Source: an uncultured Chromatiales bacterium
GTDB lineage: Bacteria > Pseudomonadota > Gammaproteobacteria > DATFLL01
Length of the DNA stretch: 64,000 bases
Assembly: GCA_964561765.1 (NCBI GenBank)
Contig: CAZLQI010000009.1
Span: 37,266 to 101,265 of the forward strand
Direction: 5' to 3'
Of this stretch, positions 355-46,844 are shown piece after piece (positions within the stretch are counted from its first letter, which is position 1; each line of letters starts with the position of its first letter). Position numbers and translations under genes: made by a program. The notes under the pieces are model-generated. The model saw only the letters and a program-made list of their open reading frames with translations, had not been told where the DNA came from and made no database searches.

Positions 355-702
355 ATGAGTAACACCATTAACAACGACGTGAATGCATTGCTGGCGAAGA
401 TGCAGACGATGAGTCTGGAGGCCCAGGGTGGTGCACCGGGTGCAGGCGGGGCCCTCGCCGGCGGTGCGCCGACAGACAAACCGGATTTCTCGGCGCTGCT
501 CAAGCAGTCCATCGACAGCGTCAATGCCACTCAACAAAATGCCGCAGCATTGTCCAGGTCCTTCGAACTGGGTGATCCCGGCGTACAGTTGGCGCAGGTC
601 ATGGTAGCCATGCAAAAGGCCTCGGTCTCGTTTCAGGCGATGACCCAGGTACGCAACAAACTGGTCTCGGCCTACAAAGACATCATGAACATGCCCATTT
701 GA
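355..702 (+). CDS. fliE: flagellar hook-basal body protein FliE
   Basis: 115 aa with the conserved FliE C-terminus ([39 protein letters not shown]); GGGGA RBS; position before fliF. Confidence 0.9.
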
Positions 703-772
703 TGATCTGCGCAGACGCTGGGGTGCACGGTATAAGCAGGATAGATAAACACTAAAGCAAGCGGATACGACG

Positions 773-2467: not shown

Positions 2468-2547
2468 GGGCCCATGAAGCCTGGCCACAACACCGCCCGG
2501 ATGGCTGTCGGCATGGGGGCCGTAATGCACGCAAGGATTAGAAGGTA

Positions 2548-3558
2548 ATGGCGGAGAGTAAAACCAAATTCAGCGGCAGCGAGCGTGCGGCCATCCTGCT
2601 CATGTCGCTGGGTGAGAAGGACGCCGCCGAGGTCATGCGCCACATGTTACCGAAGGAGGTGCAGAAGATCGGCGAGGCCATGGCCACGCTGACCAATGTG
2701 CCCAAGGATTCGGTACATGCCGTGCTCGATGACTTTTGCGGTGTCGTGCAGCAACAGACCTCACTGGGTATCGGCAACGAGGATTACCTGCGCACGGTGC
2801 TGGTCGATGCGATCGGCGCCGATAAGGCGGGTAACCTGATCGATCGTATCCTGCTCGGTCGTTCCTCCAAGGGGCTTGAAGCACTCAAATGGATGGACCC
2901 ACGCGCCGTTGCCGAGATCATCCGCCTCGAACATCCGCAGATTATCGCCATTGTATTGTCCTATCTCGACAGTGATCAGGCGGCAGAGGTGTTGTCGGCA
3001 TTGCCCGAGCGCATGCGCCCGGATGTGTTGATGCGCATCGCGTCGCTCGATGGTATTCAGCCCAATGCGCTGCATGAACTCGATGAGATCCTCGAACGCC
3101 AGTTCTCGGGCAATACGAGCAATGTGCGCTCATCCAGTGTGGGGGGCGTGAAGACTGCGGCGAATATCCTCAACTTCATGGATAGTGCCGTCGAAGGCCA
3201 GCTCATGGACTATGTCAAGGAGCAGGACGAGGAACTCGGCCAAAACATCCAGGACCTGATGTTCGTCTTCGAGAACCTGATTGAACTCGATGATCGCAGT
3301 ATTCAATCCCTGCTGCGCGAGATTTCCTCGGAAAACCTTATCACCGCGCTCAAGGGTGCCGATGAAGCCATCAAGGAGAAGATATTCCACAACATGTCCA
3401 AACGTGCCGCCGAGATGTTGCGCGATGATCTTGAGGCGAAGGGTCCGGTGCGCCTGAGCGATGTCGAGGAGGCGCAAAAGGAGATCCTGTCCGTGGCCCG
3501 GCGCATGGCCGAGTCGGGCGATATCTCGCTGGGCGGCAAGGGCGATGAATATGTCTAG
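2548..3558 (+). CDS. fliG: flagellar motor switch protein FliG
   Basis: 336 aa, N-terminus MAESKTKFSGSERAAILLMSLGE typical of FliG; conserved C-terminal torque helix region. Confidence 0.95.
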   Translation: MAESKTKFSGSERAAILLMSLGEKDAAEVMRHMLPKEVQKIGEAMATLTNVPKDSVHAVLDDFCGVVQQQTSLGIGNEDYLRTVLVDAIGADKAGNLIDRILLGRSSKGLEALKWMDPRAVAEIIRLEHPQIIAIVLSYLDSDQAAEVLSALPERMRPDVLMRIASLDGIQPNALHELDEILERQFSGNTSNVRSSSVGGVKTAANILNFMDSAVEGQLMDYVKEQDEELGQNIQDLMFVFENLIELDDRSIQSLLREISSENLITALKGADEAIKEKIFHNMSKRAAEMLRDDLEAKGPVRLSDVEEAQKEILSVARRMAESGDISLGGKGDEYV

Positions 3559-4321
3559 TCCCTCCAAGCTCATTGGCGCGGAGGAACTGACGGCCTACGA
3601 ACGCTGGGAGTTGCCCACTGTAACCGAAGGGGTCGAGCACCCGCATACCACAGGGCTGGGGGTGAACATGGACGACAGCCCCAACCTGCTAACGGCTGCA
3701 CAGATTGAAGAACTGCAACAACAGGCCTATCAGGAAGGCTACCAGTCCGGTTTCAGTCAGGGGCGCGAAGACGGTGTGCAGGCAGGCCGTGATGAGATGC
3801 ACGCGGCCGCAACGCATCTGGCCGAGGCGTTGAGCGCCCTGAGCACACCCTTCGAGGAACTCGATGCTGAGGTTGAACAGCAACTGGTGGCGTTGGCGTT
3901 CAGCGTGGCGCGCCAGATCATCCGCCGTGAATTGCGTACCGATCCCGGTCAGGTGATTGCCGTGGTTCGCGAGGCGTTGGGTGTATTGCCGGCCGCAGCA
4001 CGCACTATCCGTGTCCACCTGCATCCCGAGGACGCCCGGTTGATGCGTGAGGCGATTACGCTGGGTGATGACGCAGACAGCGCCTGGCAGATTGTCGACG
4101 ACCCGGTGCTGACCCGGGGCGGTTGTCTGATCGAGACTGAATTCTCCACCGTGGATGCCACGGTGGAGAAGCGCATCAATGCCGTCATGGCACAGGTGCT
4201 GGGTAGTGAACGTGGCCATGAGCGGGCGGTGGCGGATCAGCGCTCGCCATCGACTCCGGTTGAGCAGACACGGGTGCCTGTCGGTGATGAGCCGGGCGAG
4301 GGGCACGGTGATGAGCACTGA
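3545..4321 (+). CDS. fliH: flagellar assembly protein FliH
   Basis: In-frame ATG overlapping the fliG stop; Glu/Gln-rich N-terminus and FliH/YscL-type C-terminus; the longer 3461 start of the track ORF is inside fliG. Confidence 0.8.
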
Positions 4322-5798
4322 CGCCCCCGCCTCACCCTCGATCCGGCGTGGCGCGCGCTGGGCACGACAACTGCACGCCCTTGAGGCACATCTGGAAACC
4401 ATGCCGCCACTGGCCGTGACCGGCAGGCTGACCCGCATGGTGGGTCTGACCCTGGAGGCGGTGGGTTGCCAGGCGGTGATTGGCACGCGCTGCCTGGTGG
4501 AGAGTGTTGGCGCCGATCCTATCGAGGCCGAAGTGGTCGGCTTTTCCGGCGAGCGCCTGTACCTGATGCCCACGGGGGAGTTGCGGGGTGTGGGGCCCAA
4601 CGCGCGGGTCACTCCCAGTCAGGAGACCTATCTGGCACCAGCCGGGGAGGCCTTGCTCGGTCGCGTGCTCGATGGTGTTGGCCGCCCGTTGGATGGGCGT
4701 GGACCCTTGCACGAATCGACGCGAGTGCCTATCACCGGGCAACCGATCAATCCGCTGGCACGACAGCCCATTCGTGAACCGCTCGATGTCGGTGTGCGCG
4801 CGATCAATGCCTTGCTGACCGTGGGGCGTGGGCAGCGCATGGGTCTGTTTGCCGGCAGTGGTGTCGGCAAGAGCGTGTTGCTTGGCATGATGACCCGCTA
4901 TACCACGGCCGATGTGATTGTGGTCGGTCTTATCGGTGAGCGTGGGCGCGAGGTCAAGGAGTTCATCGACAACATCCTCGGTGAAGAAGGTCTGGCACGT
5001 GCGGTGGTGGTCGCCGTGCCCGCAGATCATACCCCGGTCATGCGCATGCATGGCGCGGCGCTGGCCACCAGTATTGCCGAATACTTCCGTGATCAGGGGC
5101 GCGATGTCTTGTTGCTGATGGACTCACTCACCCGTTATGCTCAGGCGCAGCGCGAGATCGGGTTGGCCATCGGCGAACCGCCAGCGACCAAGGGTTATCC
5201 GCCGTCGGTGTTCGCCAAGATGCCGCAACTGGTGGAACGCGCCGGTAACGGGTGTGCCGGTGGGGGCTCCATCACCGCCTTCTATACGGTACTGACAGAA
5301 GGCGATGATCAGCAAGACCCCATTGCTGATGCCGCCCGCGCCATCCTTGATGGACACATCGTGCTCTCACGCACGCTGGCCGAGTCTGGCCACTATCCGG
5401 CGATCGATATCGAGGCATCCATCAGTCGGGCGATGACGGAAATCACCGCCCCGGACCATCAGTTGCAGGCGCGTGAGTTCAAGCAGATGTATTCAACCTA
5501 TCAGCAGAATCGTGATCTGATCAGCGTTGGCGCCTACAGTTCGGGTAGTGATCCACGTATTGATTTGGCCATCGAGATGCAGCCCATCGTGCAGGCCTTT
5601 TTACAGCAGGACATGCACACCCCGGTGCGACTGGCCGACAGCCTGGCGGGTCTGCACACGTTGATGGAGGCGGCCGCACACTCCACGGGCAGGGCTGGCT
5701 CCAACGCCGGTGAGGGTGCTGCGGGGATGAACGAGGGTGTGAGCGTCAGTCAGGCCGCCGCATCCCGGGTCTATCAGGAACAGAGCGAAAGCAGGTAG
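4311..5798 (+). CDS. fliI: flagellum-specific ATPase FliI
   Basis: Walker A GSGVGKS and Walker B present; strong similarity to FliI/YscN across the core; the start was chosen by alignment to the FliI N-terminus (MSTDAPAS...WARQL) and overlaps the fliH end; about 35 aa of low-complexity C-terminal extension. Confidence 0.93.
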
Positions 5799-5803
5799 CT
5801 GGT

Positions 5804-6271
5804 ATGTCAAAGCGAAAATCCCGTCGTCTTGAACCCGTCGCTCGCGTGACCAGCCATCATGAACAGGAGGCCATGCGTGCACTGGGTCAGGCCCGTCGGG
5901 TTCTGGAAGAGCAGGTGCGCAAGCTGGGTGAGCTGCGCGAGTATCGCAGCGATTATCAGCAGCGTTTGCAGCACCGCGGCGAACAGGGTATCGATATCGG
6001 TGTCTTGCAGGAATACCGTCGTTTTGTCGAGCGCCTGGATGTCGCCGTTCAGCAGCAGGAAGAGCAGGTGACGCGGGCCAGGCAGGCCTGTGCGGTCTGT
6101 GAGGCCCATTGGCAGGACCGGCGTATTCGTAGTCAGGCCATAGACAAGGCGGTGGCACGCAGCCGGGAGGCCGAGCAACACACCCAGGCTCGGCGTGAGC
6201 AGGACGAGACCGATGAAACGGCGGGGCGTATCAGCGCCAGCGATACCACATCCGAGAGCGGCTCTCGCTGA
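5804..6271 (+). CDS. fliJ: flagellar export chaperone FliJ
   Basis: 155 aa charged coiled-coil protein directly after fliI; FliJ-like heptad pattern. Confidence 0.75.
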   Translation: MSKRKSRRLEPVARVTSHHEQEAMRALGQARRVLEEQVRKLGELREYRSDYQQRLQHRGEQGIDIGVLQEYRRFVERLDVAVQQQEEQVTRARQACAVCEAHWQDRRIRSQAIDKAVARSREAEQHTQARREQDETDETAGRISASDTTSESGSR

Positions 6272-6379
6272 TGACACCGCCCGTTGGCGTTGTCGCATTA
6301 TCCTCAGGGCGCCCACCTGCACTCAGGTGATTCACCCCGAAATGTGATTTCAGCGCGGTGTACTAAGTCAAACAATCTC

Positions 6380-6395
6380 TGGCACGCTCCTTGCT
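6380..6395 (+). promoter_or_regulatory. sigma-54 (-24/-12) promoter upstream of fliK: TGGCACgctccTTGCT
   Basis: Exact GG-N10-GC spacing with a TGGCAC ... TTGC consensus, about 40 nt upstream of the fliK start. Confidence 0.55.
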
Positions 6396-6434
6396 ACTTC
6401 TCCTGACGAAGAGGACCTCGTTACGGAGTACATC

Positions 6435-7667
6435 ATGCCGCAAGTCCCAATGCTTCACGTGAACGCCGTGGCTGCCAATACCCAGAGTGGAGCGCCGGGC
6501 CCCAGCCCGGGGACGTCCGGTGAGGTGAGCGGCCAGGACCCGTCCGCAGGTCATGATGTGCGCGCCGACGGGGGGTTTCACACGGCACTCAAAGGGGTGA
6601 AGAAACAGAGTGATGGTGTGAAAAAGCCGGGCAGCGAACTAAAAAAACAAAATGATGGCCGGGATACGGGGCCGGCATCCACCGCCGGGTCGATGCCGAC
6701 CCATCCGGATACAAAAACCGCCCCGACTGCTCTCGCAGGCAGCATATCAGGTGCTGTCGTCGGGAAAAAATCGACCGATCACGGCAAATTTCAGCCGCCC
6801 TTCCTGCCCTGGACCCTGCCGGTGGAGGCACGCGCCGGGCACATCGGCCTTGTTGCCGACCCCGATTCTGCCATGACAGCATCGGGGCAGGGTCGTCTGC
6901 CGCCAAGCCTGGCGGCCCTCCTGCGACACCCTGGTGCCAATCCCGGTGCCAATCCCGGTGCTGCTCTGGGCACTGGCCCCAAGGCAATTGCGGGTAAAGA
7001 GGGCGATTTTCTGCGCAAAGTGTTTTCCGCGCTCCACAAGCAAGACCCTCCGGGGACCGCCCTCGATCAGACGTTGCTCGCGCGTTTGGCTGTTGATCCA
7101 GCGACCACGAAGGCACTGCTTGGCGGTGGTGCCAGTCCGGCTCAGCTCATGCTCGCTGGCGCAGGTCCGGCGGTGCCCCAACTGCCTGGGGCCACTGTGA
7201 CTCCTGCCGGGCTGATTATCCCGCAGCCGGTTCAGCATCCCGGCTGGTCGCAGGCACTGGGTGAACGGGTGCAGTGGATGCTGGGACAGAACATGCAAAG
7301 CGCGTACATCCGCCTCAATCCACCGGGTCTTGGCCCCCTGGAGGTGCGCATTCTCATCCAAGGTGATCAGACCAGCGTGCAGTTCATTACCCATCACACA
7401 CAAGTACACGATGCCCTGGAGGCTTCGTTGCCGCGTCTGCGGGATATGCTCGGCAATCAGGGCATGCAGTTGGGTAATCTCAATGTCAACGTCTCCGCCC
7501 ATCCTTTCTCCGGATATACGCCGTCGCACGGTGGCGCGGGTCAGGGCCAGGGTGGCTATGGGGGTGGTGCCCATGCGGGTTTCAACGCCGACGATACCGC
7601 CAGTGTGTTGGTGGGGGCCGTCGGGCTGCGACAGCTCGGGCTGAGCATGCTGGATGTGTATGCCTGA
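6435..7667 (+). CDS. fliK: flagellar hook-length control protein FliK
   Basis: Pro/Ala/Gly-rich N-terminal part and a conserved Flg_hook C-terminal domain (QWMLGQNMQSAYIRLNPPGLGPLEVRILIQGDQTSVQF...); follows fliJ. Confidence 0.85.
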   Translation: MPQVPMLHVNAVAANTQSGAPGPSPGTSGEVSGQDPSAGHDVRADGGFHTALKGVKKQSDGVKKPGSELKKQNDGRDTGPASTAGSMPTHPDTKTAPTALAGSISGAVVGKKSTDHGKFQPPFLPWTLPVEARAGHIGLVADPDSAMTASGQGRLPPSLAALLRHPGANPGANPGAALGTGPKAIAGKEGDFLRKVFSALHKQDPPGTALDQTLLARLAVDPATTKALLGGGASPAQLMLAGAGPAVPQLPGATVTPAGLIIPQPVQHPGWSQALGERVQWMLGQNMQSAYIRLNPPGLGPLEVRILIQGDQTSVQFITHHTQVHDALEASLPRLRDMLGNQGMQLGNLNVNVSAHPFSGYTPSHGGAGQGQGGYGGGAHAGFNADDTASVLVGAVGLRQLGLSMLDVYA

Positions 7668-7746: not shown

Positions 7747-7774
7747 TAAAGGTTTTTCCCGTTGGACCGACACA
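7747..7774 (+). promoter_or_regulatory. putative sigma-28 promoter TAAAGGTTT-N11-CCGACACA upstream of the first fliA paralog
   Basis: Matches the TAAAGTTT-N11-GCCGATAA consensus in the -35 element and spacing, with 5/8 matches in the -10 element; about 110 nt upstream of the ATG at 7888. Confidence 0.35.
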
Positions 7775-7887
7775 CTGACAAGGCCCGCACGCCCACTGAC
7801 AGTGCCCACGCTGATGGCACCAGGGGCAGGCAGACCACGCTTTTCTATCTTTCCGGCAAGCGGACTCTATTCAGGGAACACGCGTGG

Positions 7888-8598
7888 ATGTACCCCAGCA
7901 TTGAGGCGAATACTGCCAGTGAACTGGTCGAAACCTATGCCCCACTGGTCAAGCGTATTGCCTATCATCTGATTGCGCGCCTGCCACCGAGTGTGTCGGT
8001 CGATGATCTCATTCAGGCCGGCATGCTGGGTTTGCTCGACGCCTGCCGCCAGTACGATCCTTCCCAGGGTGCAAAGTTTGCAACCTATGCGCGTATACGC
8101 GTGCGTGGTGCCATGCTGGATGAATTGCGTCGCAATGATTGGGCGCCGAAGTCGGTGCATCGGCGCATGCGCGATGTGGAAGTGGCGATCAGGGTGATTG
8201 AGGCACGGTACGGACGTGATGCCCGCGACGGCGAGGTCGCCGAATGCATGGGCATTGAACTCGATGAGTATTACCACATCCTGCAAGACGCGCGCAGTTG
8301 CACGGTGCTGACTCTCGACGATGCCGGGCTGGAGGGCAATCTGGGTCGCGATGACCCGGGGGAAGGGCTGCGCGGCCCCCTGGATGGCCTGCTCACTGAG
8401 CAGTTCCGCCAGGAACTGGCCAATGCTATCAGTAGTCTGCCCGAGCGCGAGCGCATGGTAGTCAGCTTCTATTATGACAACGAACTCAATCTGCGCGAGA
8501 TCGGCCAGCTGCTGGGTGTGAGTGAATCGCGCATCAGCCAGTTGTTGAGCCAGGCGCATCTGCGGCTGCGCTCGCGCTTGCGCGGCGGCACGGACTGA
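7888..8598 (+). CDS. RNA polymerase sigma factor, FliA/sigma-28 family (paralog 1; extra copy)
   Basis: 236 aa from an in-frame ATG (MYPSIEANTASELVETYAPLVKRIAYHL...); regions 2, 3 and 4 are conserved and highly similar to the canonical fliA at 46078. Confidence 0.85.
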   Translation: MYPSIEANTASELVETYAPLVKRIAYHLIARLPPSVSVDDLIQAGMLGLLDACRQYDPSQGAKFATYARIRVRGAMLDELRRNDWAPKSVHRRMRDVEVAIRVIEARYGRDARDGEVAECMGIELDEYYHILQDARSCTVLTLDDAGLEGNLGRDDPGEGLRGPLDGLLTEQFRQELANAISSLPERERMVVSFYYDNELNLREIGQLLGVSESRISQLLSQAHLRLRSRLRGGTD

Positions 8599-8821
8599 CG
8601 GTATTTATCACCAGTCCGACGGGAAGTTGTGATGTGCTTGGTGTTTTTGGTGTCGCTGCACGGTTATGCTCAATGCGTCGTGATGCTACTTTCCGAGCGC
8701 AGGATGGCGATTCAATATGCCTGGTACAAACCGTTCGCTGCCCGCATTATCTGTCGGCGCGTGGAACGGTCGATATAATAATTATTCATTCTTGATTTGA
8801 AGACCTCTCAAGGAGGCATCG

Positions 8822-10312
8822 ATGAGCCTGTCCGATATTTTTCTCTTCCTGCCGGGACCGCCCGTCATTTCCATCCTGTTCTGGGTGGTGCTGTTAATGG
8901 CGGCCCTGTACCTGGCACGTACCCCTGCACATCGCGCCCTGTTATCTCTGAGCAGTGTGCTGCACCATGCCTTCAGACTGTCGGCGTACTCGGTGCGCCT
9001 GGCCGAACAACGCCTGCACCTGCGCAACCGCGAGGTGTTGCTCTCTGCCGGGCGCGAGGCGTCGGAACGCATCATTGAACGCGAGTTCGAACGCGTGGAT
9101 GATGGGGTGCGCCGCGATCTGGCCGAGTATCCCGCCCTGCAGCGCCACATCAACGAGGGCATCACGCATATCGAGGAGGACTACCAGCAGAGCACCGAGG
9201 TACCACCGGCCCCGCCGGGCTGGGTCAAGGCCGTTGAGTCCGTGGCCAAGATTCCGTCTGCGGGCGATCCTATGGTGGCCAATATTCTTGAGGATATCCA
9301 CAGTTCGTTGCTCAAGGCGCAGAACCATGCCACCGAGGAATACCGCAAGAGTAGCCACGAACGCCATATGTATCTCAAACGCATGATGCCGCACTGGCGC
9401 AGGCTGCTGCAATTGCTTGGTCGTGTGGACAAGAATGTGAACAGCCTGCTGGAGCGATCCAAGACGCTGGACCGACACATGGACGAGTACGAGGGGATCA
9501 TCAAGAAGACGGACCATGCGGTGCGCATGCTGTCCTCGTCTTCCATTACCCAGTTCTTCATCGCGGCCTTTGTGTTGGTGATTGCCATTGGTGGTGCGGT
9601 GATCAACTTTCATCTCATCGCCCGGCCGATGTCGGAGATGGTAGGTGGGACGAGTTACATCAATCTGGGTTTTGCCAGCTATCGGACTGCGGATGTTGCC
9701 GCCCTGGTGCTCATCTTGGTCGAGGTCGCGATGGGCCTGTTTCTGATGGAGTCCTTGCGTATCACGCGCCTGTTCCCGGTGATCAATGCGCTGAATGACA
9801 AGCTGCGTGTGCGCATGATCTGGATTACATTCGCCATCCTGCTCGCATTGGCCAGTGTCGAATCGGGGCTGGCCTATATGCGTGAGATCCTCTCGCTGGA
9901 TGATGCGGCGCTGCGCGCCACGCTGCTCGGCAATACCTCCGTGGCGGTGGACCATACCAGCCGCTGGATCACCACGGCGGCGCAGATGGGGATGAGTTTC
10001 ATCTTGCCCTTCGCCCTGACCTTTGTGGCGATTCCACTGGAGTCCTTTATTCATTCCCTGCGCACCGTGCTGGGTCTCGTCGGTGTGGGGTTGTTGCGGG
10101 CGTTGGCTTTTGCGCTGCGACTGCTGGGCAACATCTCACGCTATACCGGAACACTGTCGGTCAATGTGTATGATTTGCTGATCTTTGCGCCGTTGTGGCT
10201 GGAGCGCCAGTGGATACAACGCAGTGCCGGGCGGCCCCTCGGCGTGGTGGTGAAGGCGGAGGGTCGACGCGGGGGCGGCGCCAAGCCCGCCGCGGTGGAG
10301 GGGCAGTCATGA
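8822..10312 (+). CDS. conserved hypothetical polytopic membrane protein (N-terminal TM, ~200-aa charged helical domain, 5 C-terminal TM helices)
   Basis: 496-aa ORF with a strong AGGAGG RBS 6 nt upstream; hydrophobic segments at about aa 8-30, 241-266, 295-315, 333-355, 382-410 and 413-436; the stop overlaps the next gene's start (ATGA); no family recognised. Confidence 0.7.
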   Translation: MSLSDIFLFLPGPPVISILFWVVLLMAALYLARTPAHRALLSLSSVLHHAFRLSAYSVRLAEQRLHLRNREVLLSAGREASERIIEREFERVDDGVRRDLAEYPALQRHINEGITHIEEDYQQSTEVPPAPPGWVKAVESVAKIPSAGDPMVANILEDIHSSLLKAQNHATEEYRKSSHERHMYLKRMMPHWRRLLQLLGRVDKNVNSLLERSKTLDRHMDEYEGIIKKTDHAVRMLSSSSITQFFIAAFVLVIAIGGAVINFHLIARPMSEMVGGTSYINLGFASYRTADVAALVLILVEVAMGLFLMESLRITRLFPVINALNDKLRVRMIWITFAILLALASVESGLAYMREILSLDDAALRATLLGNTSVAVDHTSRWITTAAQMGMSFILPFALTFVAIPLESFIHSLRTVLGLVGVGLLRALAFALRLLGNISRYTGTLSVNVYDLLIFAPLWLERQWIQRSAGRPLGVVVKAEGRRGGGAKPAAVEGQS

Positions 10313-10980
10313 ACAGGCGTCCTGACCTTATGCGTGTCCTGGTTGCGCTCCTGTTGGTGTTCGCGCTTGCGGGCTGCTCTTCCAAGAGTGCGGTCTCCCA
10401 CACCCGCGGGGTCTACATGCTCATTGACACCTCAGGGACTTATACCAATGAGTTGCAGAAGGCACAAAATATTGTCGACTACGTGCTGTCCAAGCTCAAC
10501 CCGGGTGATTCTTTTGCTGTGGCGCGTATCGATACCGGCAGTTTCAGTCAGAAAAATATCATAGCCAAGATGACGTTTGATGATCGCCCCAGTATGGCCA
10601 ATGCGGAGAAGCGCGAGTTTCGCGAGACCATCGATAAATTCATCAAGCACGTGAGACCGAGCGCTTACACGGATGTCACCGGCGGTATCCTGCAGGCCAT
10701 CGAGTTTCTCAACGAGGTGAACCCGGGCCACAAGACCATCCTGATCTTCTCCGACCTCAAGCAAGATCTGAAGAAAGGCTATGTGCGCAACATTCCTCTC
10801 CAGCTCAACGGTTTCGATGTGATCGCACTCAATGTCACCAAATTGCGCAGCGACAATGTTGATCCCCGCGAGTACATGAACAGGTTGAAGGAATGGCGCA
10901 AGAAGGTCGTGGCGGGCGGTGGTCATTGGCGCGTCATCAATGACCTGGAACGTATGGAGGGAATCTTCCCTAATCCATAG
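10309..10980 (+). CDS. VWA (von Willebrand factor A) domain lipoprotein
   Basis: Signal peptide plus lipobox LLVFALAGCSS; MIDAS motif DxSxS (YMLIDTSGT) with downstream TDVTGG and IFSDLKQD elements typical of VWA; translationally coupled to the upstream membrane protein. Confidence 0.75.
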   Translation: MNRRPDLMRVLVALLLVFALAGCSSKSAVSHTRGVYMLIDTSGTYTNELQKAQNIVDYVLSKLNPGDSFAVARIDTGSFSQKNIIAKMTFDDRPSMANAEKREFRETIDKFIKHVRPSAYTDVTGGILQAIEFLNEVNPGHKTILIFSDLKQDLKKGYVRNIPLQLNGFDVIALNVTKLRSDNVDPREYMNRLKEWRKKVVAGGGHWRVINDLERMEGIFPNP

Positions 10981-11020
10981 ATTATGGTCAGTGATAGCGT
11001 GGGACGACACGCCTTTTCAT

Positions 11021-11086: not shown

Positions 11087-12319
11087 CTATTGAATGCGTG
11101 ACAGGACCCGTTCCAGTGCGCCGGATTGCGCCTGTGCCCACTGTCGGCCCTGCTCGGACAACCGGCGTGACCGGGTCTCGTCGCTGATCAGTTGGTATGC
11201 GGCTTCGACCAGAGCGTGGTCATTATCGACGCCAATGATCGCGCCCGCAGCGAGGGCTGCACGTACCACAGGATCATGGTGTACGGGGCCGACGATGACC
11301 GGACATGCCAGGCTCAGGGGCGTCAAGATATCGGGGGTGTGGCCCGCCATCTCGCTGAGGCTGCCACCGGCGACGACGAAGTCCGCACAGCGGTAGAGCG
11401 CCGTCAGTGTCTGTGGGTCTTCGATGTAGTAGACGCGACTCTTGATGGGTACGAATGAGGTGCTCAAACGGTTGTGCCGGTTGGTGGGTAGGTGGTACTT
11501 GAGGGCATCACGGTAGACCGGTTCGTAGCGTTCGCCATCCCGGGGTGCCAGCGCGAGCAGGCCCATTTTGCGCCGTATCAAAGTGAAGAAGGCGCCATAG
11601 GCGATGGCCTCCTCACCGGCGCCGGTGGCGGCAAAATAGCCGATCCAGCGCCCATTCTTGCGGTGCGCGCGAAAGCGCTCACAGAGGCCGTCAATACCCG
11701 CTGGTTTGGGTAGTTGCGTGATGCCGAGCAGGGGATCGCCGGTCAGTTCGGTATCGGCCATGTGGGTGACGTCGGCGGGATCGGCGCTCAACAGAGCCTG
11801 GGCGCGGGGCATTTTGGTGACATGGCGGGGCACGTTGACCCAGAACAGCGGTGCACGGGTGGCTGTGGCGATCGTCTCGCTATGGGGTATGTCACCAAGC
11901 AGGATGAGGCGCACTGGTGCGAGCCTGGCCAAGGCCCTGCGCAGGGCCACAGGATGGGCAGGGAGTGGCACATACGGCATGGCTTGCGTCGATGACGCGG
12001 TGGGTGGTGCGTCAAAGCCGGCGCTGGCAACGCGCCCGAAACGTGCCTGTAACCCGGCCAGCAGGTCGTGGGCCTGCGCCAGGGTGGCACTGTCGCCGAT
12101 CAGCACTGTGGCCTCGCGCGCCACGCACGGGTGCGTCCCGAATCCCATACGCGCAAATAGTGACATGAGCGAGCCCATTGAATAAAAAACCGGTATTATA
12201 CGGACATGGGCGTCAAATGCCACGAGAGGAATAGCCGCCTGCGAGGGTATCGCCACGGTTCCAACAACGGCGCATGCAATTGCGATTGTCTCGCGGGCAT
12301 CGGGTACAGCGATTGCCAC
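11087..12319 (-). CDS. GT30-family glycosyltransferase, Kdo-transferase (WaaA/KdtA)-like with a divergent N-terminal domain
   Basis: C-terminal half aligns with KdtA (RWIGYFAATGAGEE ~ RPVWIASSTHEGEE; FVVAGGSLSEMAGHTPDILTPL...VIVGPVHHD ~ FVGGSLVERGGHNPLEAAAH...VLMGPHTFN; GALERVLSRI ~ GALQRLLQLL); the N-terminal HAASVGE-type motif is not recognisable; the start could instead be the internal Met at 12178. Confidence 0.55.
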   Translation of the reverse strand: MAIAVPDARETIAIACAVVGTVAIPSQAAIPLVAFDAHVRIIPVFYSMGSLMSLFARMGFGTHPCVAREATVLIGDSATLAQAHDLLAGLQARFGRVASAGFDAPPTASSTQAMPYVPLPAHPVALRRALARLAPVRLILLGDIPHSETIATATRAPLFWVNVPRHVTKMPRAQALLSADPADVTHMADTELTGDPLLGITQLPKPAGIDGLCERFRAHRKNGRWIGYFAATGAGEEAIAYGAFFTLIRRKMGLLALAPRDGERYEPVYRDALKYHLPTNRHNRLSTSFVPIKSRVYYIEDPQTLTALYRCADFVVAGGSLSEMAGHTPDILTPLSLACPVIVGPVHHDPVVRAALAAGAIIGVDNDHALVEAAYQLISDETRSRRLSEQGRQWAQAQSGALERVLSRIQ

Positions 12320-12497
12320 GTGTCGGAGCGGGTTGTTACCATGAACGTGGATTGCAGGTCTGGAACGGAGACTGCGGTTGTGACGTTATATGCCAGTACC
12401 GTAGGCAGAGTGGGCAAGGTCGGCGAATGTAACCGCAGGGCGTTAACGTGTCCTTCACGGCAGTCGGTTCCAAAGTGGGTATGTTAAAGCCGGGCAC

Positions 12498-13061
12498 GTG
12501 TCTGCCGATAAACTGCTATGGTTCGCGCCGGGGATATGTGCACTGGCGTACTGGCATGGTGAGGGCATTTTCAGCAGTGTTGAGCAAGTCTTACAATCGG
12601 ACAAATTCATGAGCCATACGATTCCAGTCGGGCGCACACGCCACCCCATGTGGTTCTATGAGCGGAACTATGCCCTGTTGCATCGACTCGTACCGGGCGG
12701 ATTGAGTCTGGGTGAGGATGTCCTGCTGGCTGCCCGCGAGAGTGGTCTGTTGCGTTTTCGTGTCGAGGAACAGTGCAAATATACCCTGACGGTTGGCATC
12801 ACTCACGCGTTTAGTGTCCGATCGGCGGCGGTGAACGAGCTGTATTTGCAGGTAAGAATCTATTGTGATGCCAGTGTGGCTGAAGTGATGGGTTATCAGG
12901 GGCATTGGCGATTTCTGCCTACCTATGATTACCCTAATGAAAACATGTTTTTACCCGATGAGAAACGACAAGTCAATTTTCTGCTCTATGAATTATTGTG
13001 CCATTTCATGACGCGAAATCGTCAGTTTGTGGACATGACCGTCGATACTGTAGGTAGCTGA
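12498..13061 (+). CDS. DUF1249 family protein (YqiB-like)
   Basis: RIYCDASVAEVMGYQGHWRFLPTYDYPNENMFLPDEKRQVNFLLYELL aligns with E. coli YqiB ([48 protein letters not shown]); the true start is possibly the Met at 12609. Confidence 0.7.
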   Translation: MSADKLLWFAPGICALAYWHGEGIFSSVEQVLQSDKFMSHTIPVGRTRHPMWFYERNYALLHRLVPGGLSLGEDVLLAARESGLLRFRVEEQCKYTLTVGITHAFSVRSAAVNELYLQVRIYCDASVAEVMGYQGHWRFLPTYDYPNENMFLPDEKRQVNFLLYELLCHFMTRNRQFVDMTVDTVGS

Positions 13062-13062: not shown

Positions 13063-13848
13063 ATGAATGTGCCTGAGAAAAGAGGGTGTGACTCGAACGC
13101 CGCGTGCGCCCTTGACGCGACCTTCGTGTCCTGCAAGTGGCGTGGAATTGGCCGCGTCATGTTGTTGTGCGTTGCGCTGAGTGTGCCCGTGGGGGCAGTG
13201 GCCGCTAATGCAGCTCAGGCCCTGCAAGCGCAGCAAGTCGGTGATTTCGCTACCGCGATGCACGTGTGGATGTCATTGGCGCAAGGCGGTGATCCGGTGG
13301 CGGAGTACAATCTCGGTTTGCTGTACCGCCATGGACAGGGCGTGGCGCAGAGTGTTGCTCAGGCACGGCATTGGTTTACCCTTGCGGCCAGTCACGGGTT
13401 GGCTGATGCCTATGCCATGCTGGGTCAGGTACCGGCCGCTCTACAGGCCAGCGCCCAGGCGCCTGCGATGCGCAGTCCGAACGCGCCACAGGTCAGCGCC
13501 AATGTGCCTGCGAGGCAGACATCGACAGGTGTAGCACCAGGCGCCAGTGTGGCGCAGGGTGCACAGAGGTGGATCAGGCAACAAAGCCCGAGCCACTACA
13601 CCCTCCAGTTGGCGAGCAGCAAGAACGTGAGTCTGATCGAGAAATACATCTCTGCTAATAACCTTGAGGGGCGAGCAGGCTATTACAAGAGTCGGCGAGG
13701 TGGCGAGGATTGGTATGCCTTGGTCTACGGCAGCTACGCCTCCTTGGCCACTGCGAAGGCGGCCATCGCCAGTTTACCCGCGAGTCTGCGCAAGTGGTCA
13801 CCGTGGGTACGCAAGTATGCCGATATCCAGCATATCATGGCGCGTTGA
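13063..13848 (+). CDS. Sel1-repeat / SPOR-domain periplasmic protein
   Basis: Sel1-like repeats (AEYNLGLLYRHGQGVAQSVAQARHWFTLAASHG) and a C-terminal SPOR domain (HYTLQLASSKNVSLIEKYI...WYALVYGSYASLATAKAAIASLP); signal-peptide-like MLLCVALSVPVGAVAANA suggests a start near 13159. Confidence 0.7.
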   Translation: MNVPEKRGCDSNAACALDATFVSCKWRGIGRVMLLCVALSVPVGAVAANAAQALQAQQVGDFATAMHVWMSLAQGGDPVAEYNLGLLYRHGQGVAQSVAQARHWFTLAASHGLADAYAMLGQVPAALQASAQAPAMRSPNAPQVSANVPARQTSTGVAPGASVAQGAQRWIRQQSPSHYTLQLASSKNVSLIEKYISANNLEGRAGYYKSRRGGEDWYALVYGSYASLATAKAAIASLPASLRKWSPWVRKYADIQHIMAR

Positions 13849-30302: not shown

Positions 30303-30504
30303 GCGGTTTTTGTTGTCAGACGTCGGGATTTTGGCGTGTCGTGATCTGCAAGGTGGATAATCCCGATATCGCGGTTGTCTCGTGGCAAGTTCGACACTGG
30401 GACGGACGTGCCCGCCGACCCATCCTTAGAGTGTATATCGGTAGTTTGGCGAGTTTCTTTAATATTGAGTACTATGGTAGTCCTGGGCAGGCACACATTC
30501 AGGC

Positions 30505-30532
30505 TCAAGGTTTACCCGGTTGCAGTCGATAG
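30505..30532 (+). promoter_or_regulatory. putative sigma-28 promoter TCAAGGTTT-N11-GTCGATAG upstream of motAB
   Basis: Close match to TAAAGTTT-N11-GCCGATAA with correct spacing, about 55 nt upstream of the motA ATG. Confidence 0.5.
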
Positions 30533-30588: not shown

Positions 30589-31443
30589 ATGAAGTTTATC
30601 GTTGGTTCTTTGATCGTTGCGGGCTCGGTCTTTGGTGGCTATATACTATCGAGTGGGAAATTGGCGGCGCTGTTTCAGCCATTCGAGTTATTGATCATCG
30701 CCGGTGGTGCGACCGGAGCCTTCGTGATCTCCAACCCCGGCAAAGTATTGAAGGATGTCCTCAAGGCCATTCCCAGCCTCCTTGCCGGTGCCAAGTACAA
30801 CAAAAAGTCCTATCTTGATCTGCTGACGATGATGTACGCATTGTTTGCCAAGGCACGCAAGGAAGGGTTGATGGCGCTGGAAAATGATATCGAAGAGCCT
30901 GAGCAGAGCGAGATTTTCAATCAGTATTCCAAGATAGTAAAGGACCATCATGTGATGAACTTCATCACCGATTACCTGCGGTTGATGGTCGGTGGCAGTA
31001 TGAACGCCTTCGAATTGGAAAACCTCATGGATGTCGAGATGGAGACCCACCATCACGAGGCCGAGCAGCCTGCCACCGCGATTACACGTGCTGCTGACGG
31101 CCTGCCGGGGTTCGGCATTGTCGCCGCCGTGATGGGGGTGGTGATCACTATGGGCTATATCAGTGAGCCCCCCGAAGTGTTGGGCCACCATATCGCCGCC
31201 GCCTTGGTGGGTACTTTTCTGGGTATCCTGCTGGCCTATGGCTTCGTCGGCCCGATGGGTACGGCAATAGAGCACAAGTCGCAAGAAGAAGCCAAGTTCA
31301 TGGAGTGCGCGAAGGTATGCATACTCGCCACGCTCAATGGTTATACACCGCAGATTGCCGTCGAGTTTGGTCGCAAGGTGATCTACAGCAAGGACAGACC
31401 GGGTTTTACAGAGCTGGAAGAGCACATCAAACAGAATAAATAA
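30589..31443 (+). CDS. motA: flagellar stator protein MotA (PomA-like)
   Basis: 284 aa, four TM helices, MotA/TolQ/ExbB family with a conserved cytoplasmic loop. Confidence 0.9.
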   Translation: MKFIVGSLIVAGSVFGGYILSSGKLAALFQPFELLIIAGGATGAFVISNPGKVLKDVLKAIPSLLAGAKYNKKSYLDLLTMMYALFAKARKEGLMALENDIEEPEQSEIFNQYSKIVKDHHVMNFITDYLRLMVGGSMNAFELENLMDVEMETHHHEAEQPATAITRAADGLPGFGIVAAVMGVVITMGYISEPPEVLGHHIAAALVGTFLGILLAYGFVGPMGTAIEHKSQEEAKFMECAKVCILATLNGYTPQIAVEFGRKVIYSKDRPGFTELEEHIKQNK

Positions 31444-31518
31444 TTCGGAGCATGGTTCGAGCAGACCGACGCGGGGGAATGCTCCGCTCCCGCTCCCGCA
31501 CAGGCATGTTGCAGGCAT

Positions 31519-36019: not shown

Positions 36020-36035
36020 TGGCACGTGTTTTGCT
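36020..36035 (+). promoter_or_regulatory. sigma-54 (-24/-12) promoter TGGCACgtgttTTGCT upstream of fliL
   Basis: Canonical GG-N10-GC spacing about 40 nt upstream of the fliL ATG; matches the FleQ/FleR-dependent class of polar flagellar promoters. Confidence 0.55.
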
Positions 36036-36582: not shown

Positions 36583-36594
36583 GAGGACGCGTGC

Positions 36595-37575: not shown

Positions 37576-37616
37576 TTCGAACACGGCGTTTTTACCCGAG
37601 AAACGGGAGTATACCC

Positions 37617-38081: not shown

Positions 38082-38106
38082 ACGCGGTCCAGGTGAATTA
38101 GGCGCC

Positions 38107-39404: not shown

Positions 39405-39426
39405 TGACAGTATAGGGAGAAGTGCG

Positions 39427-39696: not shown

Positions 39697-39699
39697 TGC

Positions 39700-40476: not shown

Positions 40477-40479
40477 GCC

Positions 40480-43926: not shown

Positions 43927-45204
43927 ATGAAAATTAAGCGGTTCTTTGCCCCCGACATGCGCCAGGCCATACGCCTGGTGCGTGAGGCAATGGGGCCGGA
44001 TGCCGTCATCCTGTCCAATGAGCGGGTCAAGGGTGGTATCGAACTGGTTGCTGCCACCGACTATGATGAGTCCATTTTCGAGTCTGACGCCAAACCTGCA
44101 CTCAAACCGGCCCTTCGGCCTGCCTCCAGATCGACTCCCATAGCCGCTTATAGCAGCGCCACAGCCAGTGCGTCGCCGGTGCATACGGTTCACGTCGCAG
44201 GTGAGGGGTGCAGCGCACAGAGCCCTGTCGAGCTGTCCGGCGACGCCGCGCAGAATATCTGGTCTCAGGAACCCACACTGGTCGAGATGCGCCGTGAACT
44301 CAGCGGCCTGCGCGGACTGTTGGTCAATCAATTATCGGGACTGGCTTGGCACGAGACACAACGCAATCGTCCTCTCTACGCCCGGCTTTTGCAGCGCATG
44401 ATGGCGCTGGGATTGAGTCCTGCACTGGCCAGGCATATCGCTGAGGCCGCGCCGGAGACCGAGGATTTTGACCACCACTGGCGCCAGGCGCTGGGTCGGC
44501 TCGCGCATGCGCTGCCGATCACGGATGATGATATTCTGGAACAGGGTGGTGTGGTGGCACTGGTGGGGCCGACCGGAGCGGGAAAAACGACCTCGGTGGC
44601 CAAACTGGCCGCCCGCTATACCCTGCGCCACGGTGCTGGCCGCGTGGCCCTGGTGGCGACCGACAGTTTTCGCATCGGTGCCCAGGAGCAGTTGCGCACC
44701 TATGCCCGCATCCTGGGTGTGCCCCTGCGGGCTGCGGACAATGGGGAGGCCCTGCGTGAGGCACTGGTTCATTTTGCCGACAAAGATCTGGTCCTGATCG
44801 ACACGGCAGGCATGGGACCACAGGACCTGCGGTTGAATCAGCAACTGGCGCTGCTCAATGAGGAGGCCTGCCCGGTGCGCAGCTATCTGGTCCTGGCCGC
44901 CAATACTCAGCGCCGGGCAATGGAGCAGGCGGTCACGGTCTTTCGCCACCCCCGTCTGACGGGTTGTATTCTCACCAAGATCGATGAAGCCGCCAGCCTC
45001 GGCGGCGCGCTGTCGGTGGCAGTGGAACAACAACTTGCGGTCGCCTATCTGACGGATGGGCAGCAGGTGCCGGAGGATATGCACGCGGCCCGTGCGCACA
45101 CTCTGGTCAGCCGCTGTGTGACACTCATGCAGCACGGGGCCGTTGGGCGTAAGGATGTGGACACTCTGACAATCGGTGGAATGGTGGCTCATGCTCATGG
45201 TTGA
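43927..45204 (+). CDS. flhF: flagellar biosynthesis GTPase FlhF (SRP-type)
   Basis: N-terminus MKIKRFFAPDMRQA..., SRP54-type G domain (GPTGAGKTTS, DTAG). Confidence 0.9.
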   Translation: MKIKRFFAPDMRQAIRLVREAMGPDAVILSNERVKGGIELVAATDYDESIFESDAKPALKPALRPASRSTPIAAYSSATASASPVHTVHVAGEGCSAQSPVELSGDAAQNIWSQEPTLVEMRRELSGLRGLLVNQLSGLAWHETQRNRPLYARLLQRMMALGLSPALARHIAEAAPETEDFDHHWRQALGRLAHALPITDDDILEQGGVVALVGPTGAGKTTSVAKLAARYTLRHGAGRVALVATDSFRIGAQEQLRTYARILGVPLRAADNGEALREALVHFADKDLVLIDTAGMGPQDLRLNQQLALLNEEACPVRSYLVLAANTQRRAMEQAVTVFRHPRLTGCILTKIDEAASLGGALSVAVEQQLAVAYLTDGQQVPEDMHAARAHTLVSRCVTLMQHGAVGRKDVDTLTIGGMVAHAHG

Positions 45205-46081
45205 AACACAACAGTTTGATCAGGCCGCCGGGCTTCGGCGCATCACCCGACCCCGGCCGGTCCGTGTCGTCGCGGTGGCCAGCGGCAAGGGTGGGGTCGG
45301 CAAGACCAATGTCTCGGTCAATCTCGCCATGTCGTTGGTCAACAACGGCAAGAAGGTCATGCTCATGGACGCCGATCTGGGTCTGGGTAATGTCGATGTC
45401 CTGCTGGGTGTTCACCCACGCTACAATCTGTCACACGTGGTGACCGGCGTATGCAGTCTGGAGGAGGCCCTCGTCCAGGGTCCCGGTGGTCTGAGGATCA
45501 TCCCGGCCTCCTCGGGTGTGCAGCAAATGGCCATGCTCTCGCCCGCCGAACACGCTGGACTCATCCGTGCCTTCAGTGAACTGAGCCAGCAGGTCGATGT
45601 ACTGCTCATCGACACCGCCGCGGGTATCGCTGACAGCGTGATTAGCTTCAGCCGGGCCGCGCAGGAGGTGATCGTGGTGGTCTGCGATGAACCCGCATCG
45701 GTCACCGATGCCTATGCCCTGATCAAACTCCTGAACCGCGAGCACGGCGTCTATCGGTTCCATGTGCTGGCCAATATGGCCCAGAGTGCGCAACAGGGGC
45801 GCGACGTCTTTGACAAGATCAATAAGGTGTCGGACCGGTTTCTGGACGTGACTCTTGACTACCTCGGCCATATTCCTTACGACGATTTTCTACGCAAGGC
45901 AGTACAGAAACAGCGTACTGTTGTCGAGGCCTACCCGCGCAGCAAGGCGGCCATGGCCTTCAGGACACTGGCAGACAAGACAGAGCGCTGGCCCATGCCC
46001 TCTGCGGCGGGTGGCCATCTGGAGTTTTTTGTTGAACGCCTTATTCAGACCAATCTGCATGATGCGGGGGTGATGCCATGA
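45191..46081 (+). CDS. flhG: flagellar number regulator FlhG/FleN (MinD-like ATPase)
   Basis: Deviant Walker A SGKGGVGKT; ParA/MinD fold; overlaps the flhF stop; start choice 45191 versus 45197 is uncertain. Confidence 0.85.
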   Translation: MLMVETQQFDQAAGLRRITRPRPVRVVAVASGKGGVGKTNVSVNLAMSLVNNGKKVMLMDADLGLGNVDVLLGVHPRYNLSHVVTGVCSLEEALVQGPGGLRIIPASSGVQQMAMLSPAEHAGLIRAFSELSQQVDVLLIDTAAGIADSVISFSRAAQEVIVVVCDEPASVTDAYALIKLLNREHGVYRFHVLANMAQSAQQGRDVFDKINKVSDRFLDVTLDYLGHIPYDDFLRKAVQKQRTVVEAYPRSKAAMAFRTLADKTERWPMPSAAGGHLEFFVERLIQTNLHDAGVMP

Positions 46082-46806
46082 ATGGAATGGCAGTGTATGC
46101 GGCGGTCCAGTTGACGACGTACTATGACGACATGGTGGAACGACATGCGTCTTTGGTAAAGCGCATTGCCTATCATCTAATGAGCCGCCTGCCGGCGAGT
46201 ATCCAGATCGAGGACATGATCCAGGCGGGGATGATTGGCCTGCTCGAGGCCTCGCGTAATTACGACGAGACCCAGGGGGCCAGTTTCGAGACCTACGCCG
46301 GTATTCGTATCCGTGGCTCCATGTTAGATGAAATCCGCAAAAACGACTGGGCACCACGCTCGGTGCATCGCAAGGCGCGCATGGTCGCGGAGGCGGTACG
46401 CGGGATCGAGCATGCCCATGGGCGCGATGCCCGTGATCACGAGATCGCCGCCGAACTGGATATCAGCCTGAATGAGTACTACCACATCCTCCAGGAGGCC
46501 AATAATCACAAGATCATGAGCGTGGAGGACATCGGGGTGGGTGATGAGTCCTATCTCAATAACATGTCGGACAATGCCCCGGGCATCGTCGATGGCCTGC
46601 ACCGTGAAGACTTGCAGCGCCTGTTGGGTGCGGCTATCGCCGGTTTGCCAGAGCGCGAACGGCTGGTCATGGCCCTCTACTATGAAGAAGAACTCAATCT
46701 GCGCGAAATCGGGGCCGTGATGGGAGTGAGTGAGTCGCGGATCAGTCAGATACACAGTCAGGCGGTCATTCGCCTGCAGGCCCGGTTGGTCATCAGACCG
46801 GACTAA
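46078..46806 (+). CDS. fliA: flagellar sigma factor FliA (sigma-28), canonical copy
   Basis: 242 aa with sigma-70 regions 2, 3 and 4; flhF-flhG-fliA-cheY synteny; start overlaps the flhG stop (ATGA). Confidence 0.93.
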   Translation: MNGMAVYAAVQLTTYYDDMVERHASLVKRIAYHLMSRLPASIQIEDMIQAGMIGLLEASRNYDETQGASFETYAGIRIRGSMLDEIRKNDWAPRSVHRKARMVAEAVRGIEHAHGRDARDHEIAAELDISLNEYYHILQEANNHKIMSVEDIGVGDESYLNNMSDNAPGIVDGLHREDLQRLLGAAIAGLPERERLVMALYYEEELNLREIGAVMGVSESRISQIHSQAVIRLQARLVIRPD

Positions 46807-46816: not shown

Positions 46817-46844
46817 TTGAAGAAATTCCAGATTCCGCCGATAT
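46817..46844 (+). promoter_or_regulatory. weak candidate sigma-28 promoter (TGAAGAAA-N11-GCCGATAT) upstream of cheY
   Basis: Good -10 GCCGATAT, poor -35; about 85 nt upstream of the cheY ATG. Confidence 0.25.

Follow-up and report, generated by a model that had tools for sequence, protein, structure and literature searches.

A diverged FliA-type sigma factor downstream of fliK suggests an additional tier of σ28 control in a gammaproteobacterial flagellar system

Why would a bacterium with one set of flagellar genes keep two different copies of the flagellar sigma factor FliA (σ28)? The question is raised by a 64,000-nt stretch of DNA from an uncultured Chromatiales bacterium (contig CAZLQI010000009.1 of assembly GCA_964561765.1, positions 37,266-101,265, forward strand; GC content 59.5%), referred to here as the window, in which one FliA-family gene, FliA2, lies directly after the hook-length control gene fliK, and a canonical copy, FliA1, lies after flhG (Table 1). 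In textbook Gammaproteobacteria, flagellar control ends with a single σ28; in this locus and, as the comparison indicates, in a whole group of environmental Gammaproteobacteria of the sulfur cycle, a second conserved σ28-type factor stands behind a predicted σ28 promoter. On sequence comparison, FliA2 is clearly more than an ordinary duplicate, and our analysis suggests that it adds a regulatory tier to the flagellar hierarchy. That an organism may possess multiple FliA-family sigma factors is already known, both from dual-flagellum species and, according to the account relayed in a later article, from Actinoplanes missouriensis. What appears to be new, as judged from the sequences compared, is a conserved sister lineage of FliA with lysine at position 97 (P. 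aeruginosa numbering), its own σ28-type promoter and characteristic neighbours. It is apparently undescribed: no prior description of this gammaproteobacterial lineage was found in the open-access literature, where only the Actinoplanes and dual-flagellum cases surfaced.

The second FliA protein and its lineage

The FliA2 and FliA1 reading frames translate without internal stops, and the two proteins are identical at 123 of 232 residues (53%; BLASTP E = 4e-89), with the motif GVSESRISQ(L/I) common to both. FliA2 scores 283.2 bits against the NCBIfam model NF005413 (cut-off 201) and 253.8 bits against TIGR02479 (cut-off 189.6), next to 303 and 264 bits, respectively, for FliA1. The Pfam domains Sigma70_r2, r3 and r4 are all present in FliA2 and region 1.1/1.2 is absent, which is the domain composition of the FliA/WhiG family, and the top match among solved structures is P. 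aeruginosa FliA (E = 5e-78), aligned end to end over residues 10-242. By these comparisons, FliA2 is an intact member of the FliA/WhiG (σ28) family of group 3 sigma factors. The original prediction, made from the same DNA, had described two full-length and related FliA proteins carrying this motif, one directly after fliK and one after flhG, as paralogs within a single flagellar system, and each of these points is borne out here.

That prediction had also called the sigma gene duplicated, which holds for paralogy but not for a recent event. With identity between them as low as 53%, and with the locus recurring on eight contigs of separate assemblies (for example GCA_006240815.1 and GCA_006240935.1), where the encoded FliA2 is identical and its gene neighbourhood the same, the copies are real, diverged paralogs, and both an assembly artefact and a recent duplication are ruled out. 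The copies stand about as far apart (53%) as each does from Pseudomonas FliA (57-58%; ~57% in the case of P. aeruginosa), which makes the duplication old. We also ruled out that FliA2 is a pseudogene or has disabled DNA-binding regions, given its full-length reading frame and retained functional residues: no disabling substitutions are found in regions 2.4 and 4.2, and among the base-reading residues a single one is invariantly changed, by the conservative replacement R97K. A foreign origin of the gene is unsupported, as its GC content (0.59-0.61) equals the window mean (0.595).

The flagellar genes of the window form one polar-type set that is divided into two complementary clusters, separated by ~27 kb of housekeeping genes. 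Cluster 1 begins with the tail of a σ54 activator, continues with fliE-F-G-H-I-J-K (355-7667) and ends with FliA2, while cluster 2 (36076-53073) contains fliL-M-N-O-P-Q-R, flhB-A-F-G, FliA1, cheY-Z-A-B and motD. No flagellar structural gene is duplicated between the clusters within the window, and we therefore rejected, for the window, the possibility that FliA2 serves a second (lateral) flagellar system. The position after flhF-flhG and before cheY-cheZ-cheA is occupied by FliA1, which has cheY directly behind it, and by its orthologs, but not by FliA2. A flgM gene was not recognised within the 64-kb window.

The distribution of FliA2-type genes was analyzed in 145 unique sigma loci, obtained by sampling species-representative genomes and metagenomes (80 loci each), and in a joint alignment of 324 sequences comprising the matches of the FliA1 search, those of the FliA2 search and the sampled loci. 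Relatives of FliA1 are numerous at 74-81% identity; the nearest relatives of FliA2 are 57-68% identical, aside from a handful of close ones (72-96%). All 120 FliA1-search matches and 42 FliA2-search matches fall into a canonical cluster, every sampled locus falls outside it, and this split is recovered in 91 of 100 neighbor-joining bootstraps. A UPGMA (unweighted pair group method with arithmetic mean) tree drew the recR/DUF1249-linked clade closer to the canonical proteins; we consider this placement misleading, as both the neighbor-joining bootstrap and Lys-97 group that clade with the non-canonical lineage. The carriers are metagenome-assembled genomes (MAGs) of the Thiohalomonadales, Thioalkalispiraceae and Ectothiorhodospiraceae types, together with metagenomes.

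Gene context likewise sets the lineage apart: flhF-flhG precedes the sigma gene in 0 of the 145 non-canonical loci. The sigma gene is followed by genes of two function-unassigned families, X496 and X223, in 50 of the loci, 17 of which place it after fliJ/fliK and 23 behind an entire second chemotaxis operon, cheA-cheW-parA-MCP-cheR-cheD-cheB (MCP, methyl-accepting chemotaxis protein). It lies after dnaX-ybaB-recR in 47 loci and after orn in 8; in 29 it is followed by DUF1249 with none of the other markers, and the remaining 11 are on short contigs that do not reveal the context. CALNYZ010000018.1 and CP070733.1 each carry the two sigma types on a single replicon, and the MAG SG8_47 has both by name. 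On CALNYZ010000018.1 (2.13 Mb), the arrangement flhB-A-F-G-fliA-cheY-Z-A-B-motA-B is found at 2.11 Mb and the chemotaxis operon, non-canonical sigma gene, X479, X216, DUF1249 and SPOR gene at 1.31 Mb. In these three genomes with both types, identity to FliA1 is 74-79% among the canonical orthologs and identity to FliA2 61-65% among the non-canonical ones, so that, on this measure, the FliA2 clade evolves faster than the canonical clade; the additional divergence is concentrated in σ3 and in the 3/4 linker, which is 18% identical between FliA2 and FliA1. The sequence record thus describes FliA2 as part of an old, widely conserved sister lineage of canonical FliA in Gammaproteobacteria of the sulfur-oxidiser type.

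Which functions this lineage has kept can be read from the residues that contact DNA and FlgM, whose roles we mapped from the P. aeruginosa σ28/FlgM crystal and open-complex cryo-electron microscopy structures (PDB 9wsf, 9wsm; PMC12784957). In the P. aeruginosa open complex, S224 and Q228 read the -35 element and Y76, R80 and D87 the core of the -10 element, and R97 makes contact with two guanines of the extended -10 element, at -15 and -14, its mutation causing a severe transcription defect (PMC12784957). FliA2 has the identical residue at each of these five -35 and -10 core positions, conservation in its clade is 100%, and the clade also keeps R32, H36 and H100. FlgM contacts include R40, R82, R90, P96, Y206 and E209, and the 3/4 linker packs against FlgM (P. 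aeruginosa; PMC12784957); all six residues are kept in FliA2 and its clade, and the differences in the FlgM contact surface of FliA2 are A203 to Ser, L204 to Phe and the divergent 3/4 linker.

At the 90% level, only three alignment columns are diagnostic for the lineage: I89L, R97K and H230L, the last of these two positions beyond the -35 reader Q228. The contrast is complete at the position of R97, with lysine in 145 of 145 non-canonical loci, including FliA2, and arginine in 164 of 164 canonical sequences; arginine is also found in E. coli FliA and in WhiG-type structures. FliA2 therefore lacks the conserved arginine that reads the extended -10 element in this family and, as the replacement is conservative, we file it as a variant inside the FliA/WhiG family. 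A fixed conservative change at a single base-reading position would be expected to shift or relax the extended -10 preference rather than abolish function, so R97K suggests altered promoter function over loss of function. Taken with the change from His to Leu near a -35 reader, the invariant R97K makes it probable that FliA2 is relaxed or shifted at the extended -10 element.

Promoter elements at the FliA2 locus

A σ28-like promoter in front of FliA2 had been part of the original prediction, and it gains considerable support here. The candidate, TAAAGGTT (7747-7754) and ACCGACAC (7766-7773) separated by 11 nt, has its -35 element 141 nt before the FliA2 ATG. As a loose pattern, taken by itself, it is not exceptional, as TAAA-N14-16-CCGA was found 4 times in the window against 1.9 expected, which is not above chance. 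The element is nevertheless convincing because of its rank in the window, its footprint in relatives and its enrichment among orthologs. Weighted scanning of both strands gave three top σ28 matches, all of them intergenic and correctly oriented, 98-133 nt before a start codon; they precede DUF1249, FliA2, which ranks second, and the gene of an HDOD-GAF signalling protein (28866-30302, minus strand). The footprint was examined in loci with 72-100% FliA2 protein identity for which DNA was retrievable, the one at 76% being the sole extra metagenome locus. TAAAGGTT and ACCGACA(C/A) are kept exactly at 72% protein identity (L170) and at 76% (L090), 127-141 nt from the ATG, while the spacers between them are unrelated (tttcccgttgg, caccagggtta and gcaccggccgat).

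Enrichment was assessed with the pattern TAAAG-N14/15-[CT]CG[ATC] in the 250 nt that lie upstream of each sigma gene. It is present in 39 of the first 80 loci, compared with 25 of 3020 random windows (0.8%) and, for other genes, 17 of 771 upstream regions (2.2%), and in the enlarged set it is present in 70 of 144 testable sigma loci. We conclude, as far as comparative sequence can tell, that the FliA2 promoter element is a real phylogenetic footprint.

The σ54-type promoters of the window complete this picture. Only two perfect matches to the consensus TGGCAC-N5-TTGCW exist in the 64 kb, each ~40 nt upstream of a flagellar gene, fliK (TGGCACGCTCCTTGCT) and fliL, which marks both genes as starts of σ54-class operons. 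A consensus scan found no σ54 promoter in the fliK-FliA2 spacer. With a σ54 site at fliK and a conserved σ28-type promoter at FliA2, fliK is assigned to the σ54 class and FliA2 to the σ28-dependent class. Weaker σ28-type elements lie upstream of cheY and of motA-motB (30589-32508, plus strand; Table 1). Promoters of the TAAAGTTT-N11-GCCGATAA type thus exist in the window, and FliA1, FliA2 or both may use them.

Two variations on these promoters were recorded among the relatives. In a recR-linked subclade (L018, L024-L030, L036, L050, L052, L058 and L082), the -10 part reads GCCG(T/C)AAT or GCCGTAAC, and the position that corresponds to the flipped -11 A of the P. aeruginosa structure is not A, which may reflect either a lineage variant of the -10 element or a register shift of one base. 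In Thiohalophilus-type loci (L016 at ~14460, L017 at ~13055, L019, L020 and L061), an ankyrin-repeat gene after the SPOR gene has a conserved σ28-type promoter, TAAAG-N15-GCCGA; these ankyrin-gene promoters account for 5 of the 17 matches to other genes in the promoter control set.

Downstream genes and the weighing of explanations

Downstream of FliA2 lie the genes of the X496 inner-membrane protein and of the X223 lipoprotein, whose start overlaps the X496 stop. The X496 family has no match in Pfam, NCBIfam or PDB-profile searches; it is all-helical, its single-sequence AlphaFold model reaches a predicted local distance difference test (pLDDT) score of 49, its orthologs are 58-67% identical to the window protein, with 70% mean column identity, and it comprises 779 representative clusters in a library of 1.84 billion proteins. 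The X223 family has more than 8000 relatives, reaching the Mariprofundaceae. The window protein has no Pfam match and only a weak profile match to the VWA domain of ITIH1 (E = 0.053); its AlphaFold2 model (pLDDT 84) retrieves VWA or integrin I domains in nearly all of the top 50 Foldseek PDB matches, among them the bacterial proteins BatB and NorD, with a lowest E-value of 8.5e-7 and with TM-scores that reach only 0.45-0.5. The residues D40, S42, T44, T121, D122, S148 and D149 are invariant and resemble a metal ion-dependent adhesion site (MIDAS). In its modelled fold and these residues, X223 has the features of a VWA protein.

The original prediction had proposed that FliA2 might drive this adjacent membrane/VWA module. 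The VWA label stands at the level of the fold, but a separate σ28-type promoter for the pair does not: the window has no such element before X496 (score 13 of 24), nor is one conserved over 29 orthologous spacers. Any control of the pair by FliA2 would therefore most simply occur through co-transcription. Neither a terminator-like site nor a plus-strand σ70-like promoter was found between FliA2 and X496 in the window, and no conserved intrinsic terminator was seen after the sigma gene. The simplest reading is that FliA2, X496 and X223 are probably co-transcribed from the FliA2 promoter. A terminator-like hairpin after X223 possibly marks the end of this unit; such sites are no more numerous in the region than chance would give, and only the position of this hairpin is suggestive.

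Further downstream, DUF1249 is the commonest downstream neighbour of the non-canonical sigma gene (109 of 145 loci), and in most X496-linked loci it is followed by the gene of a Sel1/SPOR-domain protein. In the window, a reverse-strand gene (11087-12178) with a weak glycosyltransferase-like match breaks the X223-DUF1249 order, and DUF1249 has its own σ28 promoter where this gene interrupts the otherwise conserved arrangement. The placement of this predicted promoter, a single case, fits a need of DUF1249 for σ28-type control.

We consider it rather probable, from these sequence features, that FliA2 is a functional late σ28 paralog, probably co-transcribed with X496-X223, that has a modified extended -10 requirement and acts a tier below FliA1. 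FliA2 would then belong to the late class of flagellar genes, with FliA1, FliA2 itself or both turning it on, and the hierarchy from σ54 to σ28 would gain a feed-forward or positive-feedback tier. The FliA2 unit would run through X496-X223 and, in related genomes, on into DUF1249-Sel1/SPOR. With a relaxed or shifted need for the extended -10 'GC', FliA2 would read σ28-like promoters in a target set that overlaps with, but differs from, that of FliA1. A division of promoter classes between the two sigma factors, which the original prediction had also raised, is speculative. A bolder extension, which the sequence comparisons allow us to advance only tentatively, holds that the Lys-97 lineage is a dedicated extra tier, activated by FliA1, that reads a shifted promoter class and drives a hitherto unrecognised group of late genes, among them the X496-X223 trans-envelope module and DUF1249-Sel1/SPOR; if so, it would couple flagellum completion or chemotaxis signalling to envelope function. 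The locus offers a natural, testable case in which the duplication of a sigma factor, followed by a one-residue shift at a promoter-reading position, may add a regulatory tier, and late-flagellar co-regulation would provide a first functional handle on the widespread X496 and X223 families.

Several observations weigh against this account of FliA2 as a late, lower-tier σ28. The replacement of Arg by Lys is conservative and its effect may be small, and the extended -10 of promoters of FliA2 orthologs reads AC, GT or GC with no clear rule, with too few canonical late promoters available for comparison. Only about half of the orthologs match the strict promoter pattern, none of the eight loci of the orn-linked subclade carries the motif, and read-through from fliK may be the source of the FliA2 transcript. 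Co-transcription with X496 is uncertain because the spacer between the two genes is long and variable (84-739 nt), and it has no conserved σ28 element. About two-thirds of the non-canonical sigma loci are without the X496-X223 pair. The pair, recorded also at L088 5535-7654 and L089 5517-7651, occurs without a nearby sigma gene behind an OmpA-like gene in a MAG of the Mariprofundaceae (Zetaproteobacteria) and after a cox operon on another contig, and is therefore an independent two-gene module that came to neighbour the sigma gene in only part of the lineage.

These gene neighbourhoods are also the basis of the strongest competing explanation, namely that FliA2 is a non-flagellar sigma factor recruited to an envelope module (X496, X223, DUF1249 and Sel1/SPOR), with its adjacency to fliK being incidental. 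The most constant neighbours, DUF1249 and, in a third of the sampled loci, X496/X223, are indeed non-flagellar, many of the loci follow dnaX-ybaB-recR or orn instead of flagellar genes, and non-flagellar σ28-family factors such as WhiG are known (PMC12871210). We nonetheless regard this explanation as unlikely, since the conserved σ28-type promoter ties the FliA2 gene to FliA activity, nearly all residues that read σ28 promoters are retained, and, among the 50 loci linked to X496, 40 directly follow fliJ/fliK or a complete chemotaxis operon. In addition, σ28-type promoters before cheY, motA and the HDOD gene indicate that the same promoter type serves motility genes. If FliA2 is flagellar, it could still be a redundant back-up with the specificity and FlgM control of FliA1, supplying only an extra dosage late in assembly; its DNA-contact residues and most of its FlgM-contact residues are those of FliA1, and its own σ28-type promoter would by itself give simple positive feedback. 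This seems quite unlikely to us, because redundant copies would not be expected to form a separate clade with its own conserved synteny and a diagnostic substitution fixed at a promoter-reading residue in every sampled locus, and because the clade evolves faster and has so divergent a 3/4 linker.

A different role for the neighbours is envisaged if X496 were a membrane anti-sigma factor for FliA2 and X223 its periplasmic sensor partner, in a signal-responsive module like those of sigma factors of the extracytoplasmic function (ECF) type. The sigma gene adjoins X496 in 50 loci, the flanking positive charges of the ~210-residue X496 loop (residues 33-240) suggest a cytoplasmic side, and X223 is exported as a lipoprotein whose fold is of a ligand-binding kind. 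Yet FliA2 has a σ3 domain and X496 does not strictly co-occur with the sigma gene in either direction, being missing from most non-canonical loci and present in the sigma-free pairs of the Mariprofundaceae MAG and the other contig, which is not the pattern of an ECF-type pair. Anti-sigma factors are usually far less conserved than X496, and Pfam and PDB-profile searches revealed no similarity of X496 to any known anti-sigma domain; we judge this explanation very improbable. Least credible of all are the readings in which FliA2 stems from misassembly, has decayed into a pseudogene or belongs to a lateral flagellar system; they have in their favour only the presence of two fliA-like genes and are opposed by the 53% identity, the eight contigs, the full-length reading frame, the complementary clusters and the GC content described above. 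The reading of FliA2 as a functional late paralog with altered promoter preference therefore remains the one that we prefer.

Comparable systems and further features of the window

Compared with canonical FliA (P. aeruginosa, PDB 9wsf/9wsm; E. coli, PDB 6pmi), FliA2 has the same σ2-σ3-σ4 architecture, the same -35 and -10 core readers, most of the FlgM contacts and, in its locus, a promoter of the TAAAG-N15-CCGA type. It differs in its location, in Lys-97, I89L and H230L, in the 3/4 linker and in its faster evolution, and it coexists with a canonical copy, with its own gene behind a σ28-type promoter. Several σ28 paralogs are also found alongside a single flagellar system in Actinoplanes missouriensis, for which three FliA-family sigma factors are reported (Hashiguchi et al. 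2020, Mol Microbiol 113:1170; relayed in PMC11522434). On that account, it is a precedent for a division of labour among FliA paralogs, although an actinomycete with a sporangium and zoospore developmental programme and unrelated gene neighbourhoods. Species with dual flagellar systems (the lateral sigma factors of Vibrio and Shewanella; fliA1/fliA2 of Shewanella piezotolerans, PMC5178100) also have two fliA-type genes per genome, but each of these sigma factors has its own complete structural set, whereas the window holds one set in two clusters and FliA2 is linked to X496, X223 and DUF1249. WhiG of Streptomyces is, like FliA2, a σ28-family protein that may have been redeployed to non-flagellar targets; it differs in having Arg at the equivalent of R97 (WhiG-type structures 6pfv/6pfj), in its control by the cyclic di-GMP-armed anti-sigma factor RsiG and in being the sole family member in its genome. 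A Burkholderia gene described as 'FliA-like' was considered as a parallel and set aside, as it is the ordinary fliA of Burkholderia.

Table 1. Positions of the sigma factor genes, neighbouring genes and predicted regulatory elements in the window.
Feature	Position	Strand	Description
σ54-type promoter before fliK	6380..6395	+	TGGCACGCTCCTTGCT; perfect TGGCAC-N5-TTGCW match
fliK	6435..7667	+	hook-length control; last gene of fliEFGHIJK; NCBIfam NF007514, Pfam Flg_hook; directly upstream of FliA2
Predicted FliA2 promoter	7747..7773	+	TAAAGGTT-N11-ACCGACAC; second-best σ28 match of the window
FliA2	7888..8598	+	non-canonical FliA-family sigma factor, 236 aa; Lys at the R97 position
X496	8822..10312	+	inner-membrane protein; ~6 transmembrane segments, helical soluble loop of ~210 aa after the first (topology estimate)
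X223	10309..10980	+	lipoprotein with modelled VWA fold; overlap with X496 stop (ATGA); lipobox LAGC
Terminator-like hairpin	10997..11012	+	T-rich tail; 17 nt after X223 stop
Predicted DUF1249 promoter	12485..12511	+	TAAAGCCG-N11-GCCGATAA; best σ28 match of the window, perfect -10 GCCGATAA; 98 nt upstream
DUF1249	12609..13061	+	YqiB-like; Pfam PF06853
Sel1/SPOR-domain protein	13063..13848	+	after DUF1249
Predicted HDOD-GAF promoter	30435..30461	-	TAAAGAAA-N11-ACCGATAT; among the three best σ28 matches
Weaker σ28-type element	30505..30532	+	before motA-motB; divergent from the HDOD-GAF gene
σ54-type promoter before fliL	36020..36035	+	perfect TGGCAC-N5-TTGCW match
flhG/fleN	45176..46081	+	MinD-type ATPase; canonical upstream neighbour, overlaps FliA1 start
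FliA1	46078..46806	+	canonical FliA, 242 aa; Arg at the R97 position
Weaker σ28-type element	46818..46844	+	TGAAGAAA-N11-GCCGATAT; upstream of cheY

Minor features were recorded in the spacer between the sigma gene and X496. In the window, public annotation places a 48-codon open reading frame there (8632-8778, plus strand), which has no family match and is probably not a gene. In Thioalkalispiraceae-type loci (L010, L011, L014, L015 and L022), the spacer has a conserved inverted repeat, TTCACA-N4-6-TGTGA, which resembles a half-site arrangement of the CRP/FNR type and hints at a separate regulation of X496 in those loci.

Among the flagellar and chemotaxis clusters, a second stator-like gene, motD, lies inside the che cluster of the window (52087-53073). 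On the 2.5-Mb chromosome CP070733.1 (450012-462749, L085), canonical fliA is part of a shortened cluster, orn-fliM-fliN-flhG-fliA, in which flhB/flhA/flhF are missing upstream and cheY downstream, suggesting a rearranged or reduced flagellar locus. On CALNYZ010000018.1, the second chemotaxis operon, upstream of the non-canonical sigma gene (L087, 1-5252), encodes a CheA and a 982-residue MCP that both have globin-domain matches, which suggests that an oxygen- or redox-sensing chemotaxis pathway is linked to this sigma factor.

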